DNA from: a phage
Sequence record: PZ242158.1
Length of the DNA: 64,000 nucleotides
Direction: 5' to 3' (one strand)
The notes under the pieces were generated by a model. It was given only the letters and a program-made list of their open reading frames with translations. It made no database searches and was not told the origin of the DNA. This document shows, piece by piece, positions 27,771 through 38,499 of the stretch (position 1 is the stretch's first letter; each line of letters begins with the position of its first letter). Position numbers and translations under genes: made by a program.

Positions 27771-28976
27771 ATGATTTTCATCTACGAACACTTCAAAACT
27801 CGTAAAGAAGCACGCGACCGCCGTGCAGAACTTGAGAAGAAGGGTTTCACATGTGCTATTGAGAAAGGCGACACAACCTGGACACTGGCAGTGGGTGCCC
27901 CAGAGTTGTTCGATCCTGACCGTGACAGCGTCTGCTACACCCGTGAGGATTTTGAAACCCGCGAAGAAGCCCGTTTATTTCGATACGGTCTGGAAGATAA
28001 CGGTAAGTACGCCATGATCTTAGATTTAGGCGAAGGTTCCGTTAAACGTTGGGGCGTGGTATACCCACTGTGTGTTGTTCACGGTGTGGGGTTCACTGGA
28101 GTAGCAATCAAGTCAGAAGAACCTTTAGTAGAAGTCAAAGATCCGGTGCTGGAAGTGGTGAGTAGTGTGTCTCAGCAACAGACTCGAAGCATCGAACCTT
28201 TGGTAGTTATTTGCGGGGAACTCCTCCAGATCACCTGCAACGAAGGCATTTTTGAAATTCGCCGCAGCGAAAGTGAGGAAGTTTACCAGAAAGTCTTCGA
28301 CCATATCTCTGTTCAGGAATATGATGAGGCAATTGGTGAAATCCTTGTCTGGCTGGAACGCAAGAATGAGTTCACCACACTTGCAGACAACCTGATCATG
28401 AAAGATGGTAAGCTCTACTACTACGGTGTAGAGATGCGATCCACCATTGCAAAGAAAATTGAGAAAGATTATGCAGACGGAACACTGGATGACCGCTATG
28501 TGAAATTCCTCGTTCGCCTGCTACGCAATCCTTCTGCAAAATCTGTAAACATGCTCTACGACTTTATGCAGGCCAACGATATCCAGATTGCAGAAGATGG
28601 TCGAATCATTTGCTACAAAGGGGTTCAGTTTAACGGCAGCAAGTGGGTGGATTGGCACAGTGGTAAAGTCCCACAATACCAAGGTGCTTTTGTATCCATG
28701 CCTCGTAACTTTGTAGAGGATGATCCTGAAGCTGCGTGCTCCTATGGCTTACACTGCGCCAGCAAAGAGTATGCAAAGAGCTACGGCACTGTAATGACTG
28801 TTATGGTTGACCCTGCAGATGTGGTTAGTGTGCCATACCAACACAATAGCGCTAAGTGCCGTGCATGCCGCTATGAGATTGTGGTAGCTCCGGAAGCACG
28901 CAAAGATGGAGACCCTATTGAATATGTAGTTGATCGTGACGGTAACACTATCGACATTCTTTACGAGGAGGCGTAA
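27771..28976 (+). CDS. hypothetical protein, possible rIIB-like partner
   Basis: 402-aa ORF immediately after the GHKL protein; assignment by gene order only; start at ATG 27771 after AGGAGA. Confidence 0.3.
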   Translation: MIFIYEHFKTRKEARDRRAELEKKGFTCAIEKGDTTWTLAVGAPELFDPDRDSVCYTREDFETREEARLFRYGLEDNGKYAMILDLGEGSVKRWGVVYPLCVVHGVGFTGVAIKSEEPLVEVKDPVLEVVSSVSQQQTRSIEPLVVICGELLQITCNEGIFEIRRSESEEVYQKVFDHISVQEYDEAIGEILVWLERKNEFTTLADNLIMKDGKLYYYGVEMRSTIAKKIEKDYADGTLDDRYVKFLVRLLRNPSAKSVNMLYDFMQANDIQIAEDGRIICYKGVQFNGSKWVDWHSGKVPQYQGAFVSMPRNFVEDDPEAACSYGLHCASKEYAKSYGTVMTVMVDPADVVSVPYQHNSAKCRACRYEIVVAPEARKDGDPIEYVVDRDGNTIDILYEEA

Positions 28977-30346
28977 TGGAAAAAGGGCAGTATGATGTAG
29001 GCACAGATGCTGCCCTCGTTGCAATCATGAGTGGTGAGAATGTCTTCGTTTCAGGACCCGCAGGTTGTGGGAAGACGTACCTCATCAACATGATCCAGTC
29101 AATGTATGGAGACTCTTGCATAACGGTTGCCCCGACAGGGGTAGCCGCTTTAAACGTTAATGGAGCAACAGCACACCGAACCTTCGATCTTGCAGCAGGT
29201 GTGAGCATGGAGTCAGACTGGACCGCAATAAGGGCAAAAACAGCAAAGCCTTTGAAAAGCAAGGCATTTACCATCCTAATTATCGATGAAATCTCTATGA
29301 TCCGTGCTGATAAGTTTATAGAGATGGATAGGAAACTCCGCTTCCTTCGAAAAAATGACAAACCTTTCGGAGGCATACAGGTCATATTGTTTGGCGATTT
29401 TTACCAGGCCCCTCCTGTTGTCTCTTCTATGGAGAAGGAGGCCTATTTCAACTTCTACCATACGGACCTGTGTTGCTATACCGAATCTTGGAAAGAGCTT
29501 GACCTCCACAACATAGCCCTAATAGATCAGTTCCGACAGGAGTCTATTCGATTTGCCACAATGCTCAACTGTGTTCGTGAGGGTCGTCGCATAAAAGAGG
29601 TTGTAGCAGAACTTAATGCTCGCTGTTACAAAGGTGGTGTACCAACAGATGCTCTCACAATTTGCGCCACCAACAAACAAGCAGAGGAAGTGAACAGAAG
29701 GTTCTATGATGCCATCAACGCCCCAGAGAAGGTATACACTGGTGAAATGAAGGGTAAGTTTCCCTCCACCCTGCCAGTTGAGCAGGAGATGAAGTTGAAA
29801 ATTGGCATGAAAGTTATGATAACCGCCAACGATGTTGACCCGACGCACAAAGTACCTTATTATGTTAACGGAACACGTGCCACAATTGTTAAATTTAAGA
29901 ACAAGGCAGTGGTGGTAGAGCTTGAAGATGGAACACAGGTTGACATAGAGCAAAGGTTGTGGGAGAATAACGAGTATAAGCCATCTCAGAGATACAACAT
30001 TGCAGAAAGGAAGATGGAGAAGTTTATAGAGAGGGTAGTGATTGGGTCATACAGGCAACTTCCTCTGAAATCTGGGTATGCCGTAACATCTCATAAAAGT
30101 CAAGGACTTACGCTAGATTGTTACAACCTGGACCTTGGAAAGAACGGAGCTTTCTCTCCTGGGATGACGTATGTTGCTTTGAGTCGGGTTAAGACAATAC
30201 AAGGAATAAACTTGTTGCGTCCACTAAGAGAAGTTGACATTATTGTTGACCCGCGAGTCGTAGAGTTTTACAATACAACATTCCCTGACTTAGACAAAAT
30301 TGTCAGGAAAGATTTTGAAACCAGAGCAGAAGAGGGGGACGTATGA
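28976..30346 (+). CDS. SF1B DNA helicase (Dda/Pif1/RecD-like)
   Basis: Walker A VFVSGPAGCGKTY, motif Ia APTGVAALNV, Walker B LIIDEISMI, motif III LFGDFYQAPPV, motif V TSHKSQGLTLD, motif VI VALSRVKT. Confidence 0.8.
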   Translation: MEKGQYDVGTDAALVAIMSGENVFVSGPAGCGKTYLINMIQSMYGDSCITVAPTGVAALNVNGATAHRTFDLAAGVSMESDWTAIRAKTAKPLKSKAFTILIIDEISMIRADKFIEMDRKLRFLRKNDKPFGGIQVILFGDFYQAPPVVSSMEKEAYFNFYHTDLCCYTESWKELDLHNIALIDQFRQESIRFATMLNCVREGRRIKEVVAELNARCYKGGVPTDALTICATNKQAEEVNRRFYDAINAPEKVYTGEMKGKFPSTLPVEQEMKLKIGMKVMITANDVDPTHKVPYYVNGTRATIVKFKNKAVVVELEDGTQVDIEQRLWENNEYKPSQRYNIAERKMEKFIERVVIGSYRQLPLKSGYAVTSHKSQGLTLDCYNLDLGKNGAFSPGMTYVALSRVKTIQGINLLRPLREVDIIVDPRVVEFYNTTFPDLDKIVRKDFETRAEEGDV

Positions 30347-30684
30347 GTTTGTGGAGAAATATCGTTAACTACGTGTGCGGCAATCCAACTCCTGAAGAGA
30401 AGGATGTTGTGATTCACGATTTTACTAAAAGATCTCGTGAAAAAGATCTACTGCTAACAAAGGTGACTGATAAAGATCCTGCAGTAGGGGACTGGGCAGG
30501 TTTTGCGTTTACATCGGACAAATACACCTTTAACAAAGGTGACTACCTTGTTGTGGATTTTAACGAAGACATTGAGGGTGCTGAACCTTACTATCAAACC
30601 CTTATTGTTGCAGGGTGTGTTGATCTCTCTGCAGGCATGCACAGTTTGATTCTTTTTGAGCTTGACTCTGAAGACCTTGAGTAG
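30343..30684 (+). CDS. hypothetical protein
   Basis: 113-aa ORF overlapping helicase stop. Confidence 0.35.
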   Translation: MSLWRNIVNYVCGNPTPEEKDVVIHDFTKRSREKDLLLTKVTDKDPAVGDWAGFAFTSDKYTFNKGDYLVVDFNEDIEGAEPYYQTLIVAGCVDLSAGMHSLILFELDSEDLE

Positions 30685-30744: not shown

Positions 30745-31047
30745 ATGAAACGTTATAAACCATACACTTTTGAAATCGATTTCGAACTTGACGATATGTT
30801 TACTGTGGAAGCTCAGGCAGTTGTCCAGTTGCCAGACTCGGAGTGCCGTGACTCTGATGTTGACTATTACGGGTTTAGACAAATTACCGATGTGCGTGTT
30901 TACCACAACGGTGAAGAGGTGGACTTCCACCAACTGCCAAACGATATGCGCCACTCAATTTACAAACGTGCAGCCCGTGAACTAGAGTCCTATCTGGATG
31001 CAGCGACGACAGCAGCTGCATTTGCTGAAGAAGTGGGAGGTTTCTGA
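30745..31047 (+). CDS. hypothetical protein
   Basis: 100-aa ORF, SD AAGGAAG. Confidence 0.4.
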   Translation: MKRYKPYTFEIDFELDDMFTVEAQAVVQLPDSECRDSDVDYYGFRQITDVRVYHNGEEVDFHQLPNDMRHSIYKRAARELESYLDAATTAAAFAEEVGGF

Positions 31048-31442
31048 TGATTACAGGTGTGAAGATTATCCAATACCACTTAACCAAATTGGAAGATGCT
31101 GAAAAAGAGCTTGCAGAAGTTCTGAATAGTGGATATACTTTGCTATCATGCGCCTGCTCAGACACATACGCTGTGTGGACACTTATCCGGAAGGAAGAGC
31201 CTGCGGGGATCTTGGTGCCAAACCCTAAGATCATTAGTGAGGTGGATGACTACGCTCAGGACGGCCTGCCAGAAGGCTGGGAAGTATGGGAAGGTGGTGA
31301 AAACCCTGCACCAGGTAAGTGGGTAAAATACAAACTGCGTAGTGGCGCACAGTACGCTGACTATTCTGATGACCTGGACTGGAGTCATTCTTCACCAGAA
31401 TCATCTGCAAGTTCCTATGATATCATAGCTTTTAAGGAATAA
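31047..31442 (+). CDS. hypothetical protein
   Basis: 131-aa ORF. Confidence 0.4.
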   Translation: MITGVKIIQYHLTKLEDAEKELAEVLNSGYTLLSCACSDTYAVWTLIRKEEPAGILVPNPKIISEVDDYAQDGLPEGWEVWEGGENPAPGKWVKYKLRSGAQYADYSDDLDWSHSSPESSASSYDIIAFKE

Positions 31443-31454
31443 GGAGAAGGTGGT

Positions 31455-31937
31455 ATGTCAGATTTTATGTGGAAAGTTGGTTATTCCTCCCCTGAAATGT
31501 GTAAGGCCTGTTTTGTGAAAATAGGTCGCGAGGATATCGACAAAGTGATTCTTAAGTTTCGTGATGTGGCTGTAATCGGCAACCGAGTGCTTAAGCACTT
31601 AAAGAATCTGAAGCTCACCAAAAAGAAGTTCTTTGGACTTTTCGAAGAGAAGGTTGATGCTTGGACCCATTGCATTCAGGAAGCTAAATCTCACTACAGT
31701 GCTATCATTACCCCAGAACGGGTAGCCAAGATGGAAGGATTCATCAACAGCACAGAGTTTGAGTGCCTGAAAGCTGCACTTGATAGTTATCCGAAATGCC
31801 TCAAGCACTTGGACAAGTATGTAGAAAAGGATGGGGAAATGTACCTAACCCTGGACGCATATTATGAGATGCAAGAAATTTTAAATTTAGATTTGACATT
31901 GGTATCCACCGAGTATACAATAGGTATCCGGGTTTAA
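31455..31937 (+). CDS. hypothetical protein
   Basis: 160-aa ORF, SD AAGGAGAAGG. Confidence 0.4.
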   Translation: MSDFMWKVGYSSPEMCKACFVKIGREDIDKVILKFRDVAVIGNRVLKHLKNLKLTKKKFFGLFEEKVDAWTHCIQEAKSHYSAIITPERVAKMEGFINSTEFECLKAALDSYPKCLKHLDKYVEKDGEMYLTLDAYYEMQEILNLDLTLVSTEYTIGIRV

Positions 31938-31943
31938 CACTAG

Positions 31944-31970
31944 GCCCTGCCCGAAAGGGTGGGGCTTTTT
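31944..31970 (+). terminator. intrinsic terminator (copy 1 of a duplicated hairpin)
   Basis: GCCCTGCCC-gaaa-GGGTGGGGC + TTTTT; the same 22-nt hairpin recurs at 43605. Confidence 0.6.
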
Positions 31971-31988
31971 GCATTAGGAGACAGCAAA

Positions 31989-32753
31989 TTGAAATTCATC
32001 TACAAAGAACACTACCACAAAGGTGTTGTGTGGAGTCTATTTGACGGGTCTGGTGGTGCAGTTATTGACTGGGCGAAAGCTGGGTACCTGTGCCTGTGCT
32101 TTAATGCAGAAGGTGCTGACCACGGCAGTTATGCAGAGGTGATAACCGATCATCCTAACATTCACTATGTGGATTATTGGATTGACCCATGGTTCCCTCA
32201 GGAAACTTTTTGCATGTATCCAGCTCCAGACTTTATTCTTGCATTTCCTCCGTGCACGCATTTAGCGGTATCAGGTGCTGCACATTTTAAGAAAAAGCTG
32301 GCTAAGGATCCTTTGATCCAAATTAATGCTGTAAAGGATGCTCGGGTTGCGGAAGAGTTGGGAGAGATTTACGATTGCCCGTGGCATGTAGAGAATCCTG
32401 TAGGGGTTATGTCCACACTGTGGCGAAAACCTGATTACCGTTTTCATCCTTCGGATTATGGTGGGTATTTACCGGAGGATGATGTAAACCCCTGGTTTCC
32501 TGAATTTATAGCTCCACGTGATGCCTATCCAAAAATAACTTGCGGCTGGATAGGCAATGGATTTATAATCCCGGCCACAAAACCTGTCCCGCAAATAGTT
32601 GACGCGGTTAGCGGGTATTCCATGCAACACGCCAAGCTGGGTGGAAAGAGTGCAAGAACGAAGATGATCCGAAGCCTCACGCCACGTGGCTGGGCAAAAG
32701 CCGTATTCTTAGCAAACGAGCCTGTAGTAAGGAGCAGAATTAATGGGAAGTAA
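31989..32753 (+). CDS. C5-cytosine DNA methyltransferase-like protein (small, atypical)
   Basis: Motif I-like LFDGSGG, motif IV-like AFPPCTHLAVSG (Pro-Cys), motif VI-like VENPVG; start placed at TTG 31989 after AGGAGA; the tracked GTG 31959 lies inside the terminator. Confidence 0.4.
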   Translation: MKFIYKEHYHKGVVWSLFDGSGGAVIDWAKAGYLCLCFNAEGADHGSYAEVITDHPNIHYVDYWIDPWFPQETFCMYPAPDFILAFPPCTHLAVSGAAHFKKKLAKDPLIQINAVKDARVAEELGEIYDCPWHVENPVGVMSTLWRKPDYRFHPSDYGGYLPEDDVNPWFPEFIAPRDAYPKITCGWIGNGFIIPATKPVPQIVDAVSGYSMQHAKLGGKSARTKMIRSLTPRGWAKAVFLANEPVVRSRINGK

Positions 32754-34821
32754 ATTTATGGCATCTGCATACAACCGTTTCGGTGAGCCAAACCCGAAAG
32801 CAACTAAGTATAAAAGTGGGGGGAGTGTGAAACGAGACTATCGTGATGAAAAAGAGGTTGAAACTGTAGAGACTGTTTTAGAAAATACTAAAATCGTCCC
32901 TGTCCCACAACAAAATATCGGTCTGATGGCTGCACAATATTTTGGTGTGCGATCAGCATTATCCCAAGAAGATGGTGTGACAGTCACTGCAACATATTTC
33001 CCATATTACGACCGCTACGGAAATCTGTCCGGTTTCAAAAAGCGTGACTGGACGATTCCTAAAGAGCAAAGAGGCCATTTCTCCGTTGTTGGCATAGTAA
33101 AGGCTAACTCTCAGATGTTTGGTCAAAAGCTGTGTGCATCTTCCAACAACCGTAAGCAGATTAACGTTTGTGAGGGAGAAGGTGATGTTATTGCAGCATG
33201 GCAGGCTGCATATCAGATACAAGTAAAAGGGATTCTCACCAACGCTAAAGCCCCGGCAAAGGTGAAACAGTGGGCTAAAGAGGTCCAGGACGGGATCGAT
33301 GCAGTTATCAACGGTGGCGATCTGGCAGGAAAACCATGCCTGCCTTTTGTTGGAATTAACTGTGGATGTGCAAACGCAGTAGATACTTTTGCAAACAATG
33401 AGAAGTTTATCCGTAGCTATGGAACAGTTGTGCTGGCAATGGATAACGATGCAGCTAACGAGGTAGAGAAGCAAAAACACGTCATTAAAGGTGTTGAGGC
33501 CACGCACAATATCGCAGCATTTTTGATGGCTGATAACGTTTACCACGTAGAATACCCTGGTGAAGTAAATGACCCTGACGGGGTAAAAGATATCCGTGAC
33601 ATGCTGAAGGCTAAAAAGCTGGAAGATATTGTCAACATGTTCCGGCACCCTGTTAAATATGTGCCTGATGCTGTGTCGGATTTAGAAGACTTCTCTATCG
33701 AGTCTTTGCGGAAAAAGACTTCCAACGGGGTAGATATCAGCGCAGAGTTCCCAAAACTGCAAAAAATGCTAAAAGGCTTGCACAAAGGGACACTCGTAAT
33801 GCTTACAGGGCCATCAGGGGGCGGTAAAACAACTGTAGCTAAAAAACTGGAACATTGTATTGCAAGATACCTAATGGACCCGACATGCCCGAAGGCTGAT
33901 GACTATGAAGAGGATGATCGTCTATGTATGATCCATCTTGAGGAGGACCCAGAGGAAGCAATTAACTCCTTGTATGCAAACCAGTTAGGGTTTGATGTTA
34001 AAGAGTTTGTTGAAGATCCTAGCCAGTTTTTAACTGATCAAGAACACGCAGAGATTCACCAATCATGGGCAAAAGCTGGAAAAATCAAAGTGTTCAAACA
34101 TTTCGGATCTATTCCGGTGGACGAGTTGATTACCAAGCTTAAGCAAATGGTTTGCCTGTACCATTGCCGTTATATTGTGCTGGATCACCTGTCCATGGTA
34201 ATTTCAGGGCTTAATGTTAAGGATGAGCGAAAAGAACTGGACATGGCTATGACTCAGCTGGCTGCGTTTTGTAAGCAGTTTAACGTGTTTATCTTGGTGA
34301 TCGCTCACCTCAAACGTACAGAGATTGTGCCTCCTAAGGACAAGGATGGTAACCCGTTACCTTTCTGGTATCCTGTGCGAAAAGAGAATTTGCGAGGATC
34401 GGCGGGGCTTGAACAGTTGAGTTGGGTAGTCATAGGTGTCGAGGCCGAAGAAATGGTGGATCGTTCTCGTGGACGTGTCCGTCTGGTAGGTCTTAAAAAC
34501 CGTCCAGCAAAAACTCTAGGTATTGCTGACACTTTGGTTATGGACCCGCACACAGGTAAGTTCCATGATGCCAGTAATTGGTACTGGGACAAAGAAATGC
34601 AAATGTTTACAGACGGAGAAGGTGGGGAGGTTGTTTGGAGACCTCAGGCTATGTTTGAGGATCAGGAGCATGCAGTTGTAGAAACACCTATGGGCAAGGT
34701 TGTGGCTGATAAGGTTGTAACTCCTACTGTTAAGCCTGTTGACACGCAGGAAGACCTCCAGTACGATGATCCATCCTCTGACCCGGTCCCTGGTTTTGAG
34801 GATGATGAAACGCCTTTTTAA
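32743..34821 (+). CDS. bifunctional DNA primase-helicase (TOPRIM + DnaB-family, T7 gp4-like)
   Basis: TOPRIM VCEGEGDVIAA and VVLAMDNDAANE; helicase Walker A LTGPSGGGKTT, Walker B-like IVLDHLS, H4-like RGSAGLEQLS; acidic C-terminus ending DDETPF. Confidence 0.8.
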   Translation: MGSKFMASAYNRFGEPNPKATKYKSGGSVKRDYRDEKEVETVETVLENTKIVPVPQQNIGLMAAQYFGVRSALSQEDGVTVTATYFPYYDRYGNLSGFKKRDWTIPKEQRGHFSVVGIVKANSQMFGQKLCASSNNRKQINVCEGEGDVIAAWQAAYQIQVKGILTNAKAPAKVKQWAKEVQDGIDAVINGGDLAGKPCLPFVGINCGCANAVDTFANNEKFIRSYGTVVLAMDNDAANEVEKQKHVIKGVEATHNIAAFLMADNVYHVEYPGEVNDPDGVKDIRDMLKAKKLEDIVNMFRHPVKYVPDAVSDLEDFSIESLRKKTSNGVDISAEFPKLQKMLKGLHKGTLVMLTGPSGGGKTTVAKKLEHCIARYLMDPTCPKADDYEEDDRLCMIHLEEDPEEAINSLYANQLGFDVKEFVEDPSQFLTDQEHAEIHQSWAKAGKIKVFKHFGSIPVDELITKLKQMVCLYHCRYIVLDHLSMVISGLNVKDERKELDMAMTQLAAFCKQFNVFILVIAHLKRTEIVPPKDKDGNPLPFWYPVRKENLRGSAGLEQLSWVVIGVEAEEMVDRSRGRVRLVGLKNRPAKTLGIADTLVMDPHTGKFHDASNWYWDKEMQMFTDGEGGEVVWRPQAMFEDQEHAVVETPMGKVVADKVVTPTVKPVDTQEDLQYDDPSSDPVPGFEDDETPF

Positions 34822-34879
34822 TGTTTAACAAAGAGTGGGAGGGGTAGTACAACCGCCTCCCCTTTAAGGAGAACTGTAT

Positions 34880-37303
34880 ATGAGCATGTGGTCGTTCGAT
34901 TTTGAGTCATCCGGTTTGCTGGAAGACCCAGATCTTTATTATCACTGCGGCCTGTTTAAAGAGCTGAATAAGAACCGTTTTATGCTGTTCCTTCCTCTGA
35001 ATGACCGCACACACTACTCCGAGGAGGATATAGAGAAGGCCAAGAACTTTATTCTGGCAAAGAAAACTCTTTATAAGGATTTTGAAGTTCGCATAGCAGA
35101 TTTTTCGGAGTTGGAAGGTTGGCTTACAGGAAATTCCGACTGGTCACCAACAGCTTTGAACTGCCATAACTGCTACAGTTATGACTTTATGCTGATGGAG
35201 AGATTATCCGGTATTCATTTTGATATGTTCCGTGATCCTAAATGCATGGGGACTATCAACGACCACCAGGTTAACCTGTTTGATACGTTGGCTATGAGCC
35301 GAATCTTGTGGCCTGATCGCCCTTTACCAAAAGGTTGTCCGGACGCTGTATTCAACCCGGTTACTAAGAAAATGCAACCTGTTGGTCCTCACGGCCTTAT
35401 GGCATGGGGCTACGCCCTTGGTAACCAGAAAGTTCAAATTGATGACTGGCGCGATCTTCCGCTGTGGAAATATGTGGATCGTGTGTTCGAGGACGTTATC
35501 ATCCAGGAGTTGCTCTGGAAAGAGTTGGTAGCGGAATCAAAAGGTGTATTCTACGGCAAATCTGACATGCAGAACTTTATGTATGACCCTGCCAAAGAGA
35601 AGCCTAAAGGATTCAAGAAGATTACCTGGAAGAATGCATTACGCCGAGGCATGCTGCAGCATTTCCTGATGGAGCTGCAGGCTCGACAGGGTGTGTATTT
35701 CGACATAGATGGGGCTATTGCTTTACGTGACCGCTGCGATGCGTGGATGAAAGAGATCGCTGATCGTGTTGAACCACAACTTCCTTTAAAAGAGTTATCA
35801 ATGTCTCAGCGGCCTAAGTTCCCTGAAAAGCCGTTTAACCAGGATGGGACAATCTCCAATAATGGTTGGAAATGGTTAAAAGACAAGCTTGGCTACCCTG
35901 TGGACATGAGTGCTTTAGAATTCAAAGCTCCTCCTAAGCGAGCATTTACCTCCACAGGAGATGTCAGTAAGATGGGGATAAAATGGTGTGAAGAGATGGG
36001 CTGTAAAGACCCTGACAAGATGGCGGATTTCTTGAGGGGCTATATCAAGGGCACCTCCACACCACAACCTTTACCTAAAGAGCTAATGGATCAGGCAATA
36101 AGTGATCTACAGCAGAAGCGAATGCCTGACTGCAAGATACCTATGAAAATCAGTAATCAGGACGATATTAAGCGATACCTGATCAGTGCTGGTTGGCTTC
36201 CGACAATGTGGAGAACTAAGGATGTAACTAAAGACAGCAAGAAGAAAGCTCTACCTGATGCAGATGTTGATGCACGAGTGTATGCATATATGGACGAGCT
36301 TTTAGAGTCAGAGTATTGTGACCTAATTATCAACTTCTGGAACAAAACTGATGCTAAGTTCCAGACAACCGTGCACAAGTTCCGAAGCTTTCCTAACTCC
36401 GAAAGGATTAAAAAGGAAGTATTCGGGAAAATACGTAGAAAAGCTAGGGCACTTATTACTTCTCCGCAACTGAAAGATACGTTTGGACACCTATGCCCGA
36501 ATCTTGAAAAATTGAACGGAGAGATGGCTAAAGATATCGTCTTGTGGTTATCATTGCGAAACCGCAGATCGGTCCTTGATCCAATCAAGGAGGATAAGGT
36601 TGATACTGGTCTTCTTAATCACCCACGTTTGAAGATTGACCATAAGCTTCCTGCTAAAAGTTCTGGATTAACAAACACTTCCCGACAGAAACACAGTATT
36701 TGTGCAAACATGCCTAAACCATCTCCTAAAGTGGTTATGGGTAAAGAGATGCGTAGTCTGTGGGGTGTTCCTCCAGGATACTTTGAGATCGGTATTGACG
36801 GGTCCAACTTAGAGCAGCTTATCGGGGCTTGGGGTGCCTTTGAGTTCGACAACGGCCTGTATTACGATGTTGTAAGTAACGGGGACGCACACCAAAACAA
36901 TGCTGAGGCATATACAAAAGTAGCAGGTAGAGAGGTGTCTCGTAACGACGGTAAACCTATCACGTATGGGGTTATGTATGGGGCACAAAAAGATAAAGTT
37001 GCAGATATGCTGGACATCTCTCCAGAGTTGGGACAAAGGGTAATCGATGCACTCTGGGATGCCAACCCTGGTCTTAAGGGGCGTAAAGAAGATCTGGAGA
37101 AATTCTGGGAAGCAACGGGTAAGAAGTTTATCTACTCTTTTGATGGTCATGCTATCTGGACCCGATCTAAACACTCTTTACTTAATGCATACCAACAAAA
37201 TGGCGGCGCATCGTTGTGTGACTTAGTTGGGATACTCATGCACCATCAAATGGTGAAGCGTGGGTGGTACGATGAAGGTGTTCGTCGTATTATCTATTAC
37301 CAT
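34880..37303 (+). CDS. family A DNA polymerase, exon 1 (3'-5' exonuclease plus polymerase motifs A and B)
   Basis: Exo I FDFESSG; motif A EIGIDGSNLEQL; motif B RNDGKPITYGVMYG; frame ends ...RIIYYH just before motif C, then K and stop inside the intron. Confidence 0.8.
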
Positions 37304-38145
37304 AAATAACATTGTGGCTTCGTGCAGTGATGCACGTCGAAAACCTCTTTAATTGACGGGAAGGCTAAGTTGACTTTTACACCTAAACATGGTAAAAGCT
37401 CAATATGCTAATCCGCAGCGAAGACTAAAGGGGTGTAGTTAAAATGGCTAGATCAGTTGATTATCACGGATATACCGTGTTTGATGATGGAACAATACCT
37501 TTATCGAAACGTGATCATACAACAATGTTTTGTTTTGATAATGGTCGAGGTTACCTTTGCGTAACCATGTTCATCGAGGGGAAGCAGTGCACAAAAGGTG
37601 TCCACCACTTGGTTGCTGAATGCTTTGTATCAAACCCTGATCCTGAAAGGCTCACATGGGTGAACCATAAGGACGGAAACAAATACAACAATGCATACTG
37701 GAACCTTGAATGGACCACCCCTGGTGGAAATATCAAACACGCTTATGATAATGACCTCAGAGTAAGGCCAGTCGGTGAGTATAATGCCAACGCTGTACTG
37801 ACCGAGGATGAGGTAACGGAGATTTGCGAACTGTTACAGAGTGGTCTACGACAATGCGAGATTAGGGATCTTGGGTATCCTTATGAGACGGTCAGAGCCA
37901 TAAAGCAAAGAAGACAGTGGAAACATATCTCTAAAAACTACACCTGGTAGTAACGTTCAGAGACTATCGAAAGCATAGCGCCAACATAAATTGGTGCGAA
38001 GAAGCGAGTAGAGTAGGCCAGCAAGTGCGGTCGAAATGGGAGGTGCCTTGGTAACAAGGTAGTGAGATAGTCCGATCCATACAGGAAACTGTATGGCTGT
38101 GCACGTAATGGTGCGGGGTAGCTTAACGACCTACCTGAACTATTG
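37304..38145 (+). mobile_element. group I self-splicing intron (842 nt) carrying an HNH homing endonuclease
   Basis: Conserved P (aattgacgggaagg, 37341), Q (aatccgcagc, 37400), R (gttcagagacta, 37955) and S (agatagtcc, 38065) elements; 5' exon ends in U, intron ends in G at 38145; splice joins YYH to DEYQLQV. Confidence 0.75.
37444..37950 (+). CDS. intron-encoded HNH homing endonuclease
   Basis: VNHKDGNKYNNAYWNLEWTT (HNH_3-type motif); own SD AAAGGGG; lies between the Q and R elements. Confidence 0.7.
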   Translation: MARSVDYHGYTVFDDGTIPLSKRDHTTMFCFDNGRGYLCVTMFIEGKQCTKGVHHLVAECFVSNPDPERLTWVNHKDGNKYNNAYWNLEWTTPGGNIKHAYDNDLRVRPVGEYNANAVLTEDEVTEICELLQSGLRQCEIRDLGYPYETVRAIKQRRQWKHISKNYTW

Positions 38146-38499
38146 GATGAGTACCAACTTCAGGTCCCTGACACACCTAAGTATAAGACTGTGTACACCT
38201 TCGACACAATTGAAGAATTGGAAGCATTTAAGGCAGAGCAGGAGGCCAAACTTCATGTGTTCGACGGTCATAAGTACAAAAAGGCACGCAAGGATGAAAA
38301 CGGAAACGAAGTGGTTGACAGAGACGGAAACACGGTGTACGATCCTATCCTGAACGATGACGGAAAGCTTGAACTTATCTGGAGCCCTGTGGGTGAAATG
38401 GTGGTGCATTGCTTCTGGCAAGCTTCTAAAATGATGGGAGTCCCGTTCCAGATCACAGGTGAATACTTGTGTGGTCGTAACTGGGGTGATTGTCACTAA
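38146..38499 (+). CDS. family A DNA polymerase, exon 2 (motif C and C-terminus)
   Basis: Frame opens at 38122, no ATG/SD; begins DEYQLQV (completes the HDE motif C) and ends GRNWGDCH with the C-terminal His conserved in Pol A enzymes. Confidence 0.6.
   Translation, partial: DEYQLQVPDTPKYKTVYTFDTIEELEAFKAEQEAKLHVFDGHKYKKARKDENGNEVVDRDGNTVYDPILNDDGKLELIWSPVGEMVVHCFWQASKMMGVPFQITGEYLCGRNWGDCH

Follow-up and report, generated by a model that had tools for sequence, protein, structure and literature searches.

A compact gene in the replication module of a Vequintavirus genome, a probable orphan cytosine-C5 DNA methyltransferase

The 64,000-nucleotide stretch of phage DNA considered here (record PZ242158.1, the whole of which we call the window) belongs to a Vequintavirus (rV5-like) genome and carries, between a Dda-like helicase gene and a primase/helicase gene, a short gene whose product we take, with a probability of roughly 0.85, to be an orphan DNA (cytosine-C5) methyltransferase dependent on S-adenosylmethionine (SAM), of the compact phage family PHROG 757. 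The 4-kb neighbourhood of the gene is 99.0% identical to Shigella phage CM1 and 97-99% identical to many rV5-like Escherichia phages. The open reading frame (ORF) spans 31959-32753 on the plus strand; with the probable TTG start it encodes a single-domain protein of 254 aa, and the resulting coding sequence (CDS; Table 1) has the same bounds as the annotated bas59_0072 of Escherichia phage EduardKellenberger (MZ501061). TTG at 31989 was retained as the start because AGGAG lies upstream and because it agrees with the GenBank annotation. Two other candidates were rejected: GTG at 31959 falls within a terminator-like hairpin, and GTG at 32028 has no good ribosome-binding site.

Table 1. Features of the methyltransferase gene and its surroundings (window coordinates; residue numbers are those of the 254-aa protein)
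Feature	Position	Strand	Remarks
CDS, probable compact C5-cytosine DNA methyltransferase	31989-32753	+	254 aa, TTG start, TAA stop
Putative Shine-Dalgarno sequence AGGAG	31976-31980	+	8 nt upstream of the TTG; read from the sequence
Motif I FDGSGG, predicted SAM-binding loop	32040-32057	+	residues 18-23, after strand beta-1
Motif IV FPPCTHLAVSG	32244-32276	+	residues 86-96; predicted nucleophile Cys89, codon 32253-32255
Motif VI variant ENPVG	32391-32405	+	residues 135-139, including Glu135
Family-specific block RDAYPKITCGW	32517-32549	+	residues 177-187; at the position of canonical motif VIII (QxRxR)
Short C-terminal region	32556-32750	+	residues 190-254; LGGKSxRTKxIRSLTPRG stretch (about 43 residues), then helix 233-253
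Dda-like helicase	28976-30346		flanks the methyltransferase gene upstream
Sigma-70-like promoter match TTGACA-17-TACAAT	31893-31921	+	11/12 consensus; inside the end of the upstream ORF
Terminator-like GC-rich hairpin with a T-run after it	31942-31967	+	11 pairs (7 G-C), 4-nt loop; between the upstream ORF and the methyltransferase gene
DNA primase/helicase	32743-34821	+	PHROG 239, E = 6e-160
Family-A DNA polymerase	starts 34880	+	downstream of the primase/helicase

Three motifs of the cytosine-C5 methyltransferases are found in the protein. The FDGSGG loop directly follows strand 13-17 of an AlphaFold2 model and aligns with motif I of DNMT3B and M.HaeIII. Cys89 aligns with the Pro-Cys motif of DNMT3B and of E. 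coli Dcm, and the residue after it is Thr90, where the canonical enzymes have Gln. The variant motif VI, ENP (135-137), stands at the end of strand 132-136, with Pro as its third residue in place of the canonical Val. A preliminary description of the gene, made from the sequence alone, had quoted all three motifs from a small protein and had remarked on both substitutions; the motifs are present as quoted, in 254 aa, and the substitutions are real. Cys89 and Thr90 are invariant in the close-homologue alignment (A1) and in alignment A2, and Cys89 is also invariant in the diverse alignment (A3). Among 77 diverse representatives taken at 50% clustering, C89, E135, P137, P154, Y180, W187, and P195 are invariant, and F86, P87, G96, N136, D178, K182, T184, R228, P232, and G234 are more than 90% conserved. 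In the RDAYPKITCGW block, D178, Y180, K182, T184, and W187 vary little or not at all; from the succession of secondary-structure elements we infer that this block is the motif VIII equivalent, with K182 functionally equivalent. The C-terminal segment has its own conserved residues in A1 and A2 (G218, G219, T224, K225, R228, S229, and P232), and within it RSLTPRG resembles motif IX or X, its match to Dcm being non-significant (E = 1.2).

The AlphaFold2 model, built from a 46-sequence alignment, has a mean predicted local distance difference test score (pLDDT) of 91.3 and a predicted template modelling score (pTM) of 0.90, and contains seven strands in the order expected of a class-I methyltransferase. 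Its N-terminal half consists of strand 13-17, the FDGSGG loop, strands 34-39 and 58-62, and strand 82-85, followed by PPC with its loop and three helices; the C-terminal half runs from strand 132-136, ending in ENP, through strand 150-152, a long conserved loop, and RDxYxK to strand 184-189. About 43 residues containing LGGKSxRTKxIRSLTPRG follow, and a long helix, 233-253, ends the chain. In this model, residues 190-254 are the only room for a target-recognition element together with an equivalent of motifs IX and X. A Foldseek search of the PDB returned DNMT3A/B entries plus 3g7u as its top 50 matches, and the top matches in BFVD, a library of viral structures, were phage entries named 'DNA-cytosine methylase'. 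The predicted fold thus matches the C5 DNA methyltransferases. The lack of a QxRxR motif VIII and of room for a recognition domain of 80-100+ residues probably explains why the best structural matches are to the catalytic domains of DNMT3, whose recognition regions are the smallest known.

The gene is widespread. By tblastn it is at least 95% identical across 116 Vequintavirus-type records, and homologues occur in 1,504 phage records; a word-indexed search of a database clustered at 90% gave 3,546 matching proteins, and an exhaustive search with a hidden Markov model (HMM) gave 2,049 matching representatives at 50% clustering. Numbers of this order show that the ORF is not a chance one. Of the best 150 representatives, those that are full-length almost all measure 205-260 aa. 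The match to PHROG 757 ('DNA methyltransferase') is full-length (E = 7.7e-87, residues 2-251 against profile positions 5-226 of 247). GenBank names in relatives range from 'Dcm-like C5 cytosine methyltransferase', 'putative DNA cytosine methyltransferase', 'putative site specific DNA methylase', and 'Dcm' to 'hypothetical protein'; with several records annotated in the first of these ways and a close relative studied experimentally, the gene is already known. A 563-aa family member (P0270) has the compact C5-like domain fused to a D12 Dam-type N6-adenine DNA methyltransferase, which fits a DNA substrate and a role in DNA modification.

Other members of the family show how far it can vary. Proteus phage Mydo (L006:2456-3187), E. 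coli phage Sortsne (L007:2480-3217), and Klebsiella phage Fuzzy_ER39 (L008:2432-3259) hold distant members with 35-39% identity, which retain Cys-Thr, ENP, RDxYxKxT, and a C-terminal GGxSxxTKxIRSxTPxGFA. Their motif I has no glycines (YDYTSV, FNLTRI, and FNRSRH, respectively), and Glu replaces the Pro before the Cys, which puts SAM binding by these three in question. By structure search, the compact domain is also contained in BFVD entry A0A6J5SE15_1, a 1397-aa protein of an uncultured phage labelled 'Helicase/UvrB N-terminal', an echo of the helicase-proximal position of the gene in phage genomes. Among the 121 megablast matches to positions 31000-35000, nearly all at least 90% identical, are 16 'Campylobacter phage' records (host Campylobacter jejuni, MG065xxx), and in other records so named the copy of the gene is of Drexlerviridae type, which suggests that coliphage sequences in that submission were mislabelled or entered it as contaminants.

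Direct evidence on the chemistry comes from a relative. Over 235 aligned residues the window protein shares 54% identity (E = 2e-86) with the Dcm of the Hanrivervirus KarlJaspers (Bas06), whose genome is 95.4% identical to that of phage K42 (bioRxiv 10.1101/2023.08.16.553469). In that study, all four K42 escapers of retron Ec86 had lesions in or just upstream of the 711-bp dcm gene, and expression of dcm was toxic only with Ec86 present. Liquid chromatography coupled to mass spectrometry (LC-MS) found high 5-methylcytosine (5mC) in the multicopy single-stranded DNA (msDNA) of Ec86 with wild-type K42 Dcm, but not with a C82A/E128A/K175A/K176A mutant, and mutation of a CCTGG site in the msDNA stem abolished Ec86 defence (bioRxiv 10.1101/2023.08.16.553469). 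Three of the four mutated residues are conserved in the window protein: C82 corresponds to Cys89, E128 to Glu135, and, by pairwise alignment, K175 to K182 of the RDAYPKITCGW block. We regard the K42 data, measured on that homologue, as good evidence that the compact family makes 5mC in DNA.

Besides the motifs, the preliminary description had called the protein C5-methyltransferase-like, atypically small, orphan, and a neighbour of replication genes. Each of these attributes has held up, through the predicted fold, the 205-260-aa family, the 5mC-making homologue, the surroundings of the gene free of an adjacent endonuclease, and the Dda-like helicase, primase/helicase, and DNA polymerase genes that flank it. 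The profile check that it proposed went the other way, and heads a series of results that weigh against a C5-methyltransferase. The window protein gives no match to PF00145 even at E <= 10, and nothing relevant in Pfam or NCBIfam. Some homologues do match: 25 of the 46 close ones weakly (best E = 1.3e-6), three of eight tested singly above the gathering score (24.7-28.5 bits, against a cutoff of 22), and two of the 77 diverse members at E < 0.01; those that pass cover only PF00145 positions 4-94, that is, motifs I-IV. No C5 methyltransferase in the PDB was found by sequence with the diverse profile A3, and phmmer and hmmsearch runs against the PDB with the single protein, A1, and A3 returned nothing of relevance beyond borderline N-terminal matches to DNMT3B and HaeIII (E = 0.36-1). 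The canonical motif VIII, QxRxR, is absent, and so is a target-recognition domain of normal size (some 80 residues or more, then motifs IX and X); about 43 residues lie between strand 184-189 and helix 233-253. In sum, the protein has the predicted fold of C5 methyltransferases and their motifs I, IV, and VI, but fails the Pfam threshold, motif VIII, and the canonical recognition domain.

Comparison with E. coli Dcm belongs to the same side of the balance. BLASTP gave E = 1.2, the local match of RSLTPRGWAKAV to RRLTPRECARLM of Dcm being non-significant, and hhalign runs against Dcm alone and against a profile of 15 Dcm orthologues (A4) were likewise non-significant (E = 0.22 and 0.54), even if the proposed alignment sets FPPCT opposite FPCQ and IENP opposite LENV, in register. 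A4 is shallow, as the Dcm homologue search gave only orthologues at least 74% identical. Dcm orthologues carry PF00145 and PF18284, and the window protein carries neither. A true Dcm orthologue was rejected on these grounds, and the lack of significant similarity makes 'Dcm-like' a functional label with no sign of orthology.

The K42 evidence has limits of its own that count against the assignment. The direct assays concern the K42 homologue, not the Vequintavirus protein; the fourth mutated residue, K176, corresponds to Ile183 in the window protein, at a position that is variable in other members too. The work, a preprint, relied on a mutant with four changes at once in a dcm+ host, and took the CCWGG specificity over from E. 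coli Dcm instead of mapping it (bioRxiv 10.1101/2023.08.16.553469). The host, MG1655, carries its own dcm.

What applies to the window protein itself, namely its activity, its target, and its benefit to the phage, we infer. By the established C5 mechanism, the enzyme would flip the target cytosine out of the duplex, Cys89 in the Pro-Cys motif would attack C6, and Glu135 in the ENP motif would engage N3/N4; SAM, bound by the FDGSGG loop, would donate its methyl group to C5, and beta-elimination would free the enzyme. The seven-stranded class-I core would be kept, and the conserved RDxYxKxT strand together with the approximately 43 Lys/Arg-rich residues of the LGGKSxRTKxIRSLTPRG stretch would take the place of motif VIII, the large target-recognition domain, and motif IX. 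DNA would be recognized through this basic C-terminal segment and loop 161-183, a region closer to the minimal one of DNMT3A/B than to those of M.HhaI or Dcm; strong conservation of both elements across the close family suggests a shared target. The place of the gene in the replication module and its overlap with the start of the primase/helicase gene indicate that the enzyme is probably made during phage DNA replication. It would then methylate nascent phage DNA plus any host or msDNA target, and the phage would be protected, in a site-specific way, against restriction enzymes that this 5mC blocks, CCWGG (EcoRII-type) sites being the usual assumption. Carrying such an enzyme would also expose the phage to defences that sense methylation, such as retron Ec86/Eco1.

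Site counts have no bearing on the target: CCWGG occurs 133 times in the 64,000-nt window (Markov observed/expected 0.83), neither avoided nor strikingly enriched. In the same counts, CTAG is rare (54 against 118.5 expected, observed/expected 0.46), as is GTAC (126 against 203.4, 0.62), and GATC occurs 303 times (observed/expected 1.00). In the related phage Bas51, GATC is methylated by a separate N6-adenine methyltransferase, and the Bas51 nanopore study addressed that enzyme only. Our literature searches found no base-resolution 5mC map of a phage with an enzyme of the present family.

What the enzyme does for the phage is less firmly placed than its chemistry. Orphan phage methyltransferases are generally regarded as anti-restriction devices, and for this gene an anti-restriction role is the conventional expectation only. 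An alternative that we consider plausible, if less likely than not, is an active DNA C5-methyltransferase whose main role is not classical anti-restriction (it would mark or time replicating DNA for packaging, repair, or expression, or counter another defence), or whose target is non-CCWGG, relaxed, or structure-dependent. The overlap with the primase/helicase gene and the position in the replication module, found in several unrelated phage groups, speak for it, as do the BASEL data on restriction. Vequintavirinae proved exceptionally restriction-sensitive there, remaining highly sensitive to restriction-modification systems of types II and III, and among Drexlerviridae methyltransferase content was not linked to restriction resistance. 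The BASEL panel comprised two systems each of types I, II, and III, including EcoKI, EcoRI, EcoRV, and EcoP1_I; none of them is known to recognize CCWGG, so their efficacy leaves room for site-specific protection. Only one consequence of carrying such a gene is on record, and it is a disadvantage: the triggering of retron Ec86 by K42.

On the target itself, the protein has no detectable similarity to the target-recognition region of Dcm and only about 43 residues to devote to recognition. Any simple model in which the phage enzyme has the same specificity as host Dcm must account for the fact that MG1655, though dcm+, tolerates Ec86, which the phage enzyme nonetheless sets off. This would be easier to understand if the two enzymes differed in target or efficiency, and differences in expression level or in access to the msDNA could also explain it. 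The loss of Ec86 defence upon mutation of the CCTGG site argues for the conventional target. A more far-reaching proposal, which we put forward because the recognition element is minimal and strongly conserved and because the genes lie beside helicase and primase genes, is that the compact family is no CCWGG 'Dcm' at all, but has a different, relaxed, or structure-dependent specificity, for example for hairpins or replication intermediates. We think this improbable, if worth stating: it would explain why Ec86 is tolerated in the dcm+ host and fires with the phage enzyme, and the family would then count with the smallest autonomous DNA C5-methyltransferases and would recognize its target in a new way.

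A change of chemistry or substrate is much harder to sustain than a change of role. The C5-methyltransferase fold could serve, for instance, carboxymethyl transfer from carboxy-SAM (Cx-SAM), methylation of RNA or tRNA in the manner of Dnmt2, or modification of free nucleotides. CT for CQ, ENP for ENV, and the loss of QxRxR are family-wide, and the glycine-free motif I of some distant members could be taken the same way; the window protein, however, has the canonical FDGSGG loop, and structural neighbours that would suggest such chemistry (8yf3 and Dnmt2) are unspecific. Against it stand the LC-MS detection of 5mC in DNA for the K42 homologue, dependent on the catalytic residues, the P0270 fusion to a Dam-type DNA methyltransferase, and the absence of an annotated CmoA-like Cx-SAM synthase from the corresponding region of a related genome. 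We consider this reading very improbable, and the suggestion in the preliminary description of a different nucleobase-modifying enzyme, in favour of which we found nothing, is contradicted by the same LC-MS result. We find it scarcely credible that the protein is a relic without catalytic activity, or a DNA binder with a retained methyltransferase fold: the missing Pfam match and the non-canonical motif residues would suit this, but every family-invariant residue is present, including Cys89 and Glu135, identity across the 116 Vequintavirus-type records is at least 95%, and the 54%-identical homologue is active.

The genomic setting of the orphan C5-methyltransferase gene is conserved in outline. 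In Vequintavirus, Mydovirus, and Hanrivervirus its neighbours include a helicase or primase gene, and in Sortsnevirus a primase gene and a Dam gene lie a few genes away. The ATG of the primase/helicase gene overlaps the final 11 nt of the methyltransferase gene, a possible case of translational coupling; the same arrangement of the two genes is found in MZ501061, MZ501048, and Proteus phage Mydo. No restriction endonuclease gene was found beside the methyltransferase gene, which is why we call the enzyme orphan. The promoter and hairpin matches upstream (Table 1) are leads only, because a consensus scan of the region gave counts of such sites no higher than in shuffled sequence; a transcript from that promoter would start with the hairpin, which could be a 5' stabilizer or an attenuator.

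Four small conserved ORFs, which match PHROGs of unknown function, separate the Dda-like helicase gene from the methyltransferase gene. Three of them (30343-30684, 30745-31047, and 31047-31442) weakly match PHROGs with enzyme labels: phrog_10936 and phrog_10384 ('DNA ligase') and phrog_1573 ('DNA methyltransferase', E = 2e-4, for the 100-aa ORF 30745-31047). In Mydo, the homologues of two ORFs of this kind bear the name 'DNA ligase' at a length of only 72-104 aa, and the labels are probably annotation artefacts. On the other side, the DNA polymerase gene is interrupted (34880-38499, plus strand): its ORF 34880-37309 (809 aa) ends early, a 168-aa ORF (37444-37950) lies at the place of a 'putative homing endonuclease', and a candidate C-terminal polymerase piece is at approximately 38143-38499. 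AlexBoehm has the same layout, annotated as a two-piece joined polymerase CDS enclosing a 'putative homing endonuclease'; the polymerase gene of EduardKellenberger is uninterrupted.

In practical terms, it depends on members of the compact family whether retron Ec86/Eco1 is triggered by a phage. Cocktails for phage therapy and biocontrol contain rV5-like phages, whose host range could therefore be narrowed by a defence that senses methylation. Biochemically, an enzyme of 225-255 aa would carry out C5 methylation with neither a canonical target-recognition domain nor motif VIII. Finally, the enzyme is invisible to Pfam and NCBIfam, and a dedicated profile would therefore improve phage annotation.

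Set beside known systems, the protein is closest to the Dcm of KarlJaspers and K42, which shares its family and compact architecture (236 aa from a 711-bp gene, against 254 aa) and is encoded near a helicase gene. Those phages are siphoviruses of the Drexlerviridae, whereas the window is that of a Vequintavirus myovirus, and the window protein has short N- and C-terminal extensions. The catalytic domains of DNMT3A/B, the best structural matches, are only 12-17% identical to it, with TM-scores of 0.4-0.5; DNMT3 enzymes work as oligomers with regulatory domains and recognize CpG. The prophage cytosine methyltransferases 3g7u (CP-933R) and 3lx6 (Shigella flexneri) are approximately 100 residues longer, at 348 and 362 aa, and are undetectable by sequence search from the compact phage family. 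E. coli Dcm differs in its N-terminal domain, PF18284, and its vsr partner gene, both of which are missing here. Canonical bacterial enzymes such as M.HhaI, M.HaeIII, and E. coli Dcm/M.EcoRII, at 327-472 aa, have motif I, the Pro-Cys motif, and the motif VI Glu in the same order and spacing as the 254-aa window protein, which differs from them in having neither QxRxR nor a large target-recognition domain and in falling below the Pfam threshold.

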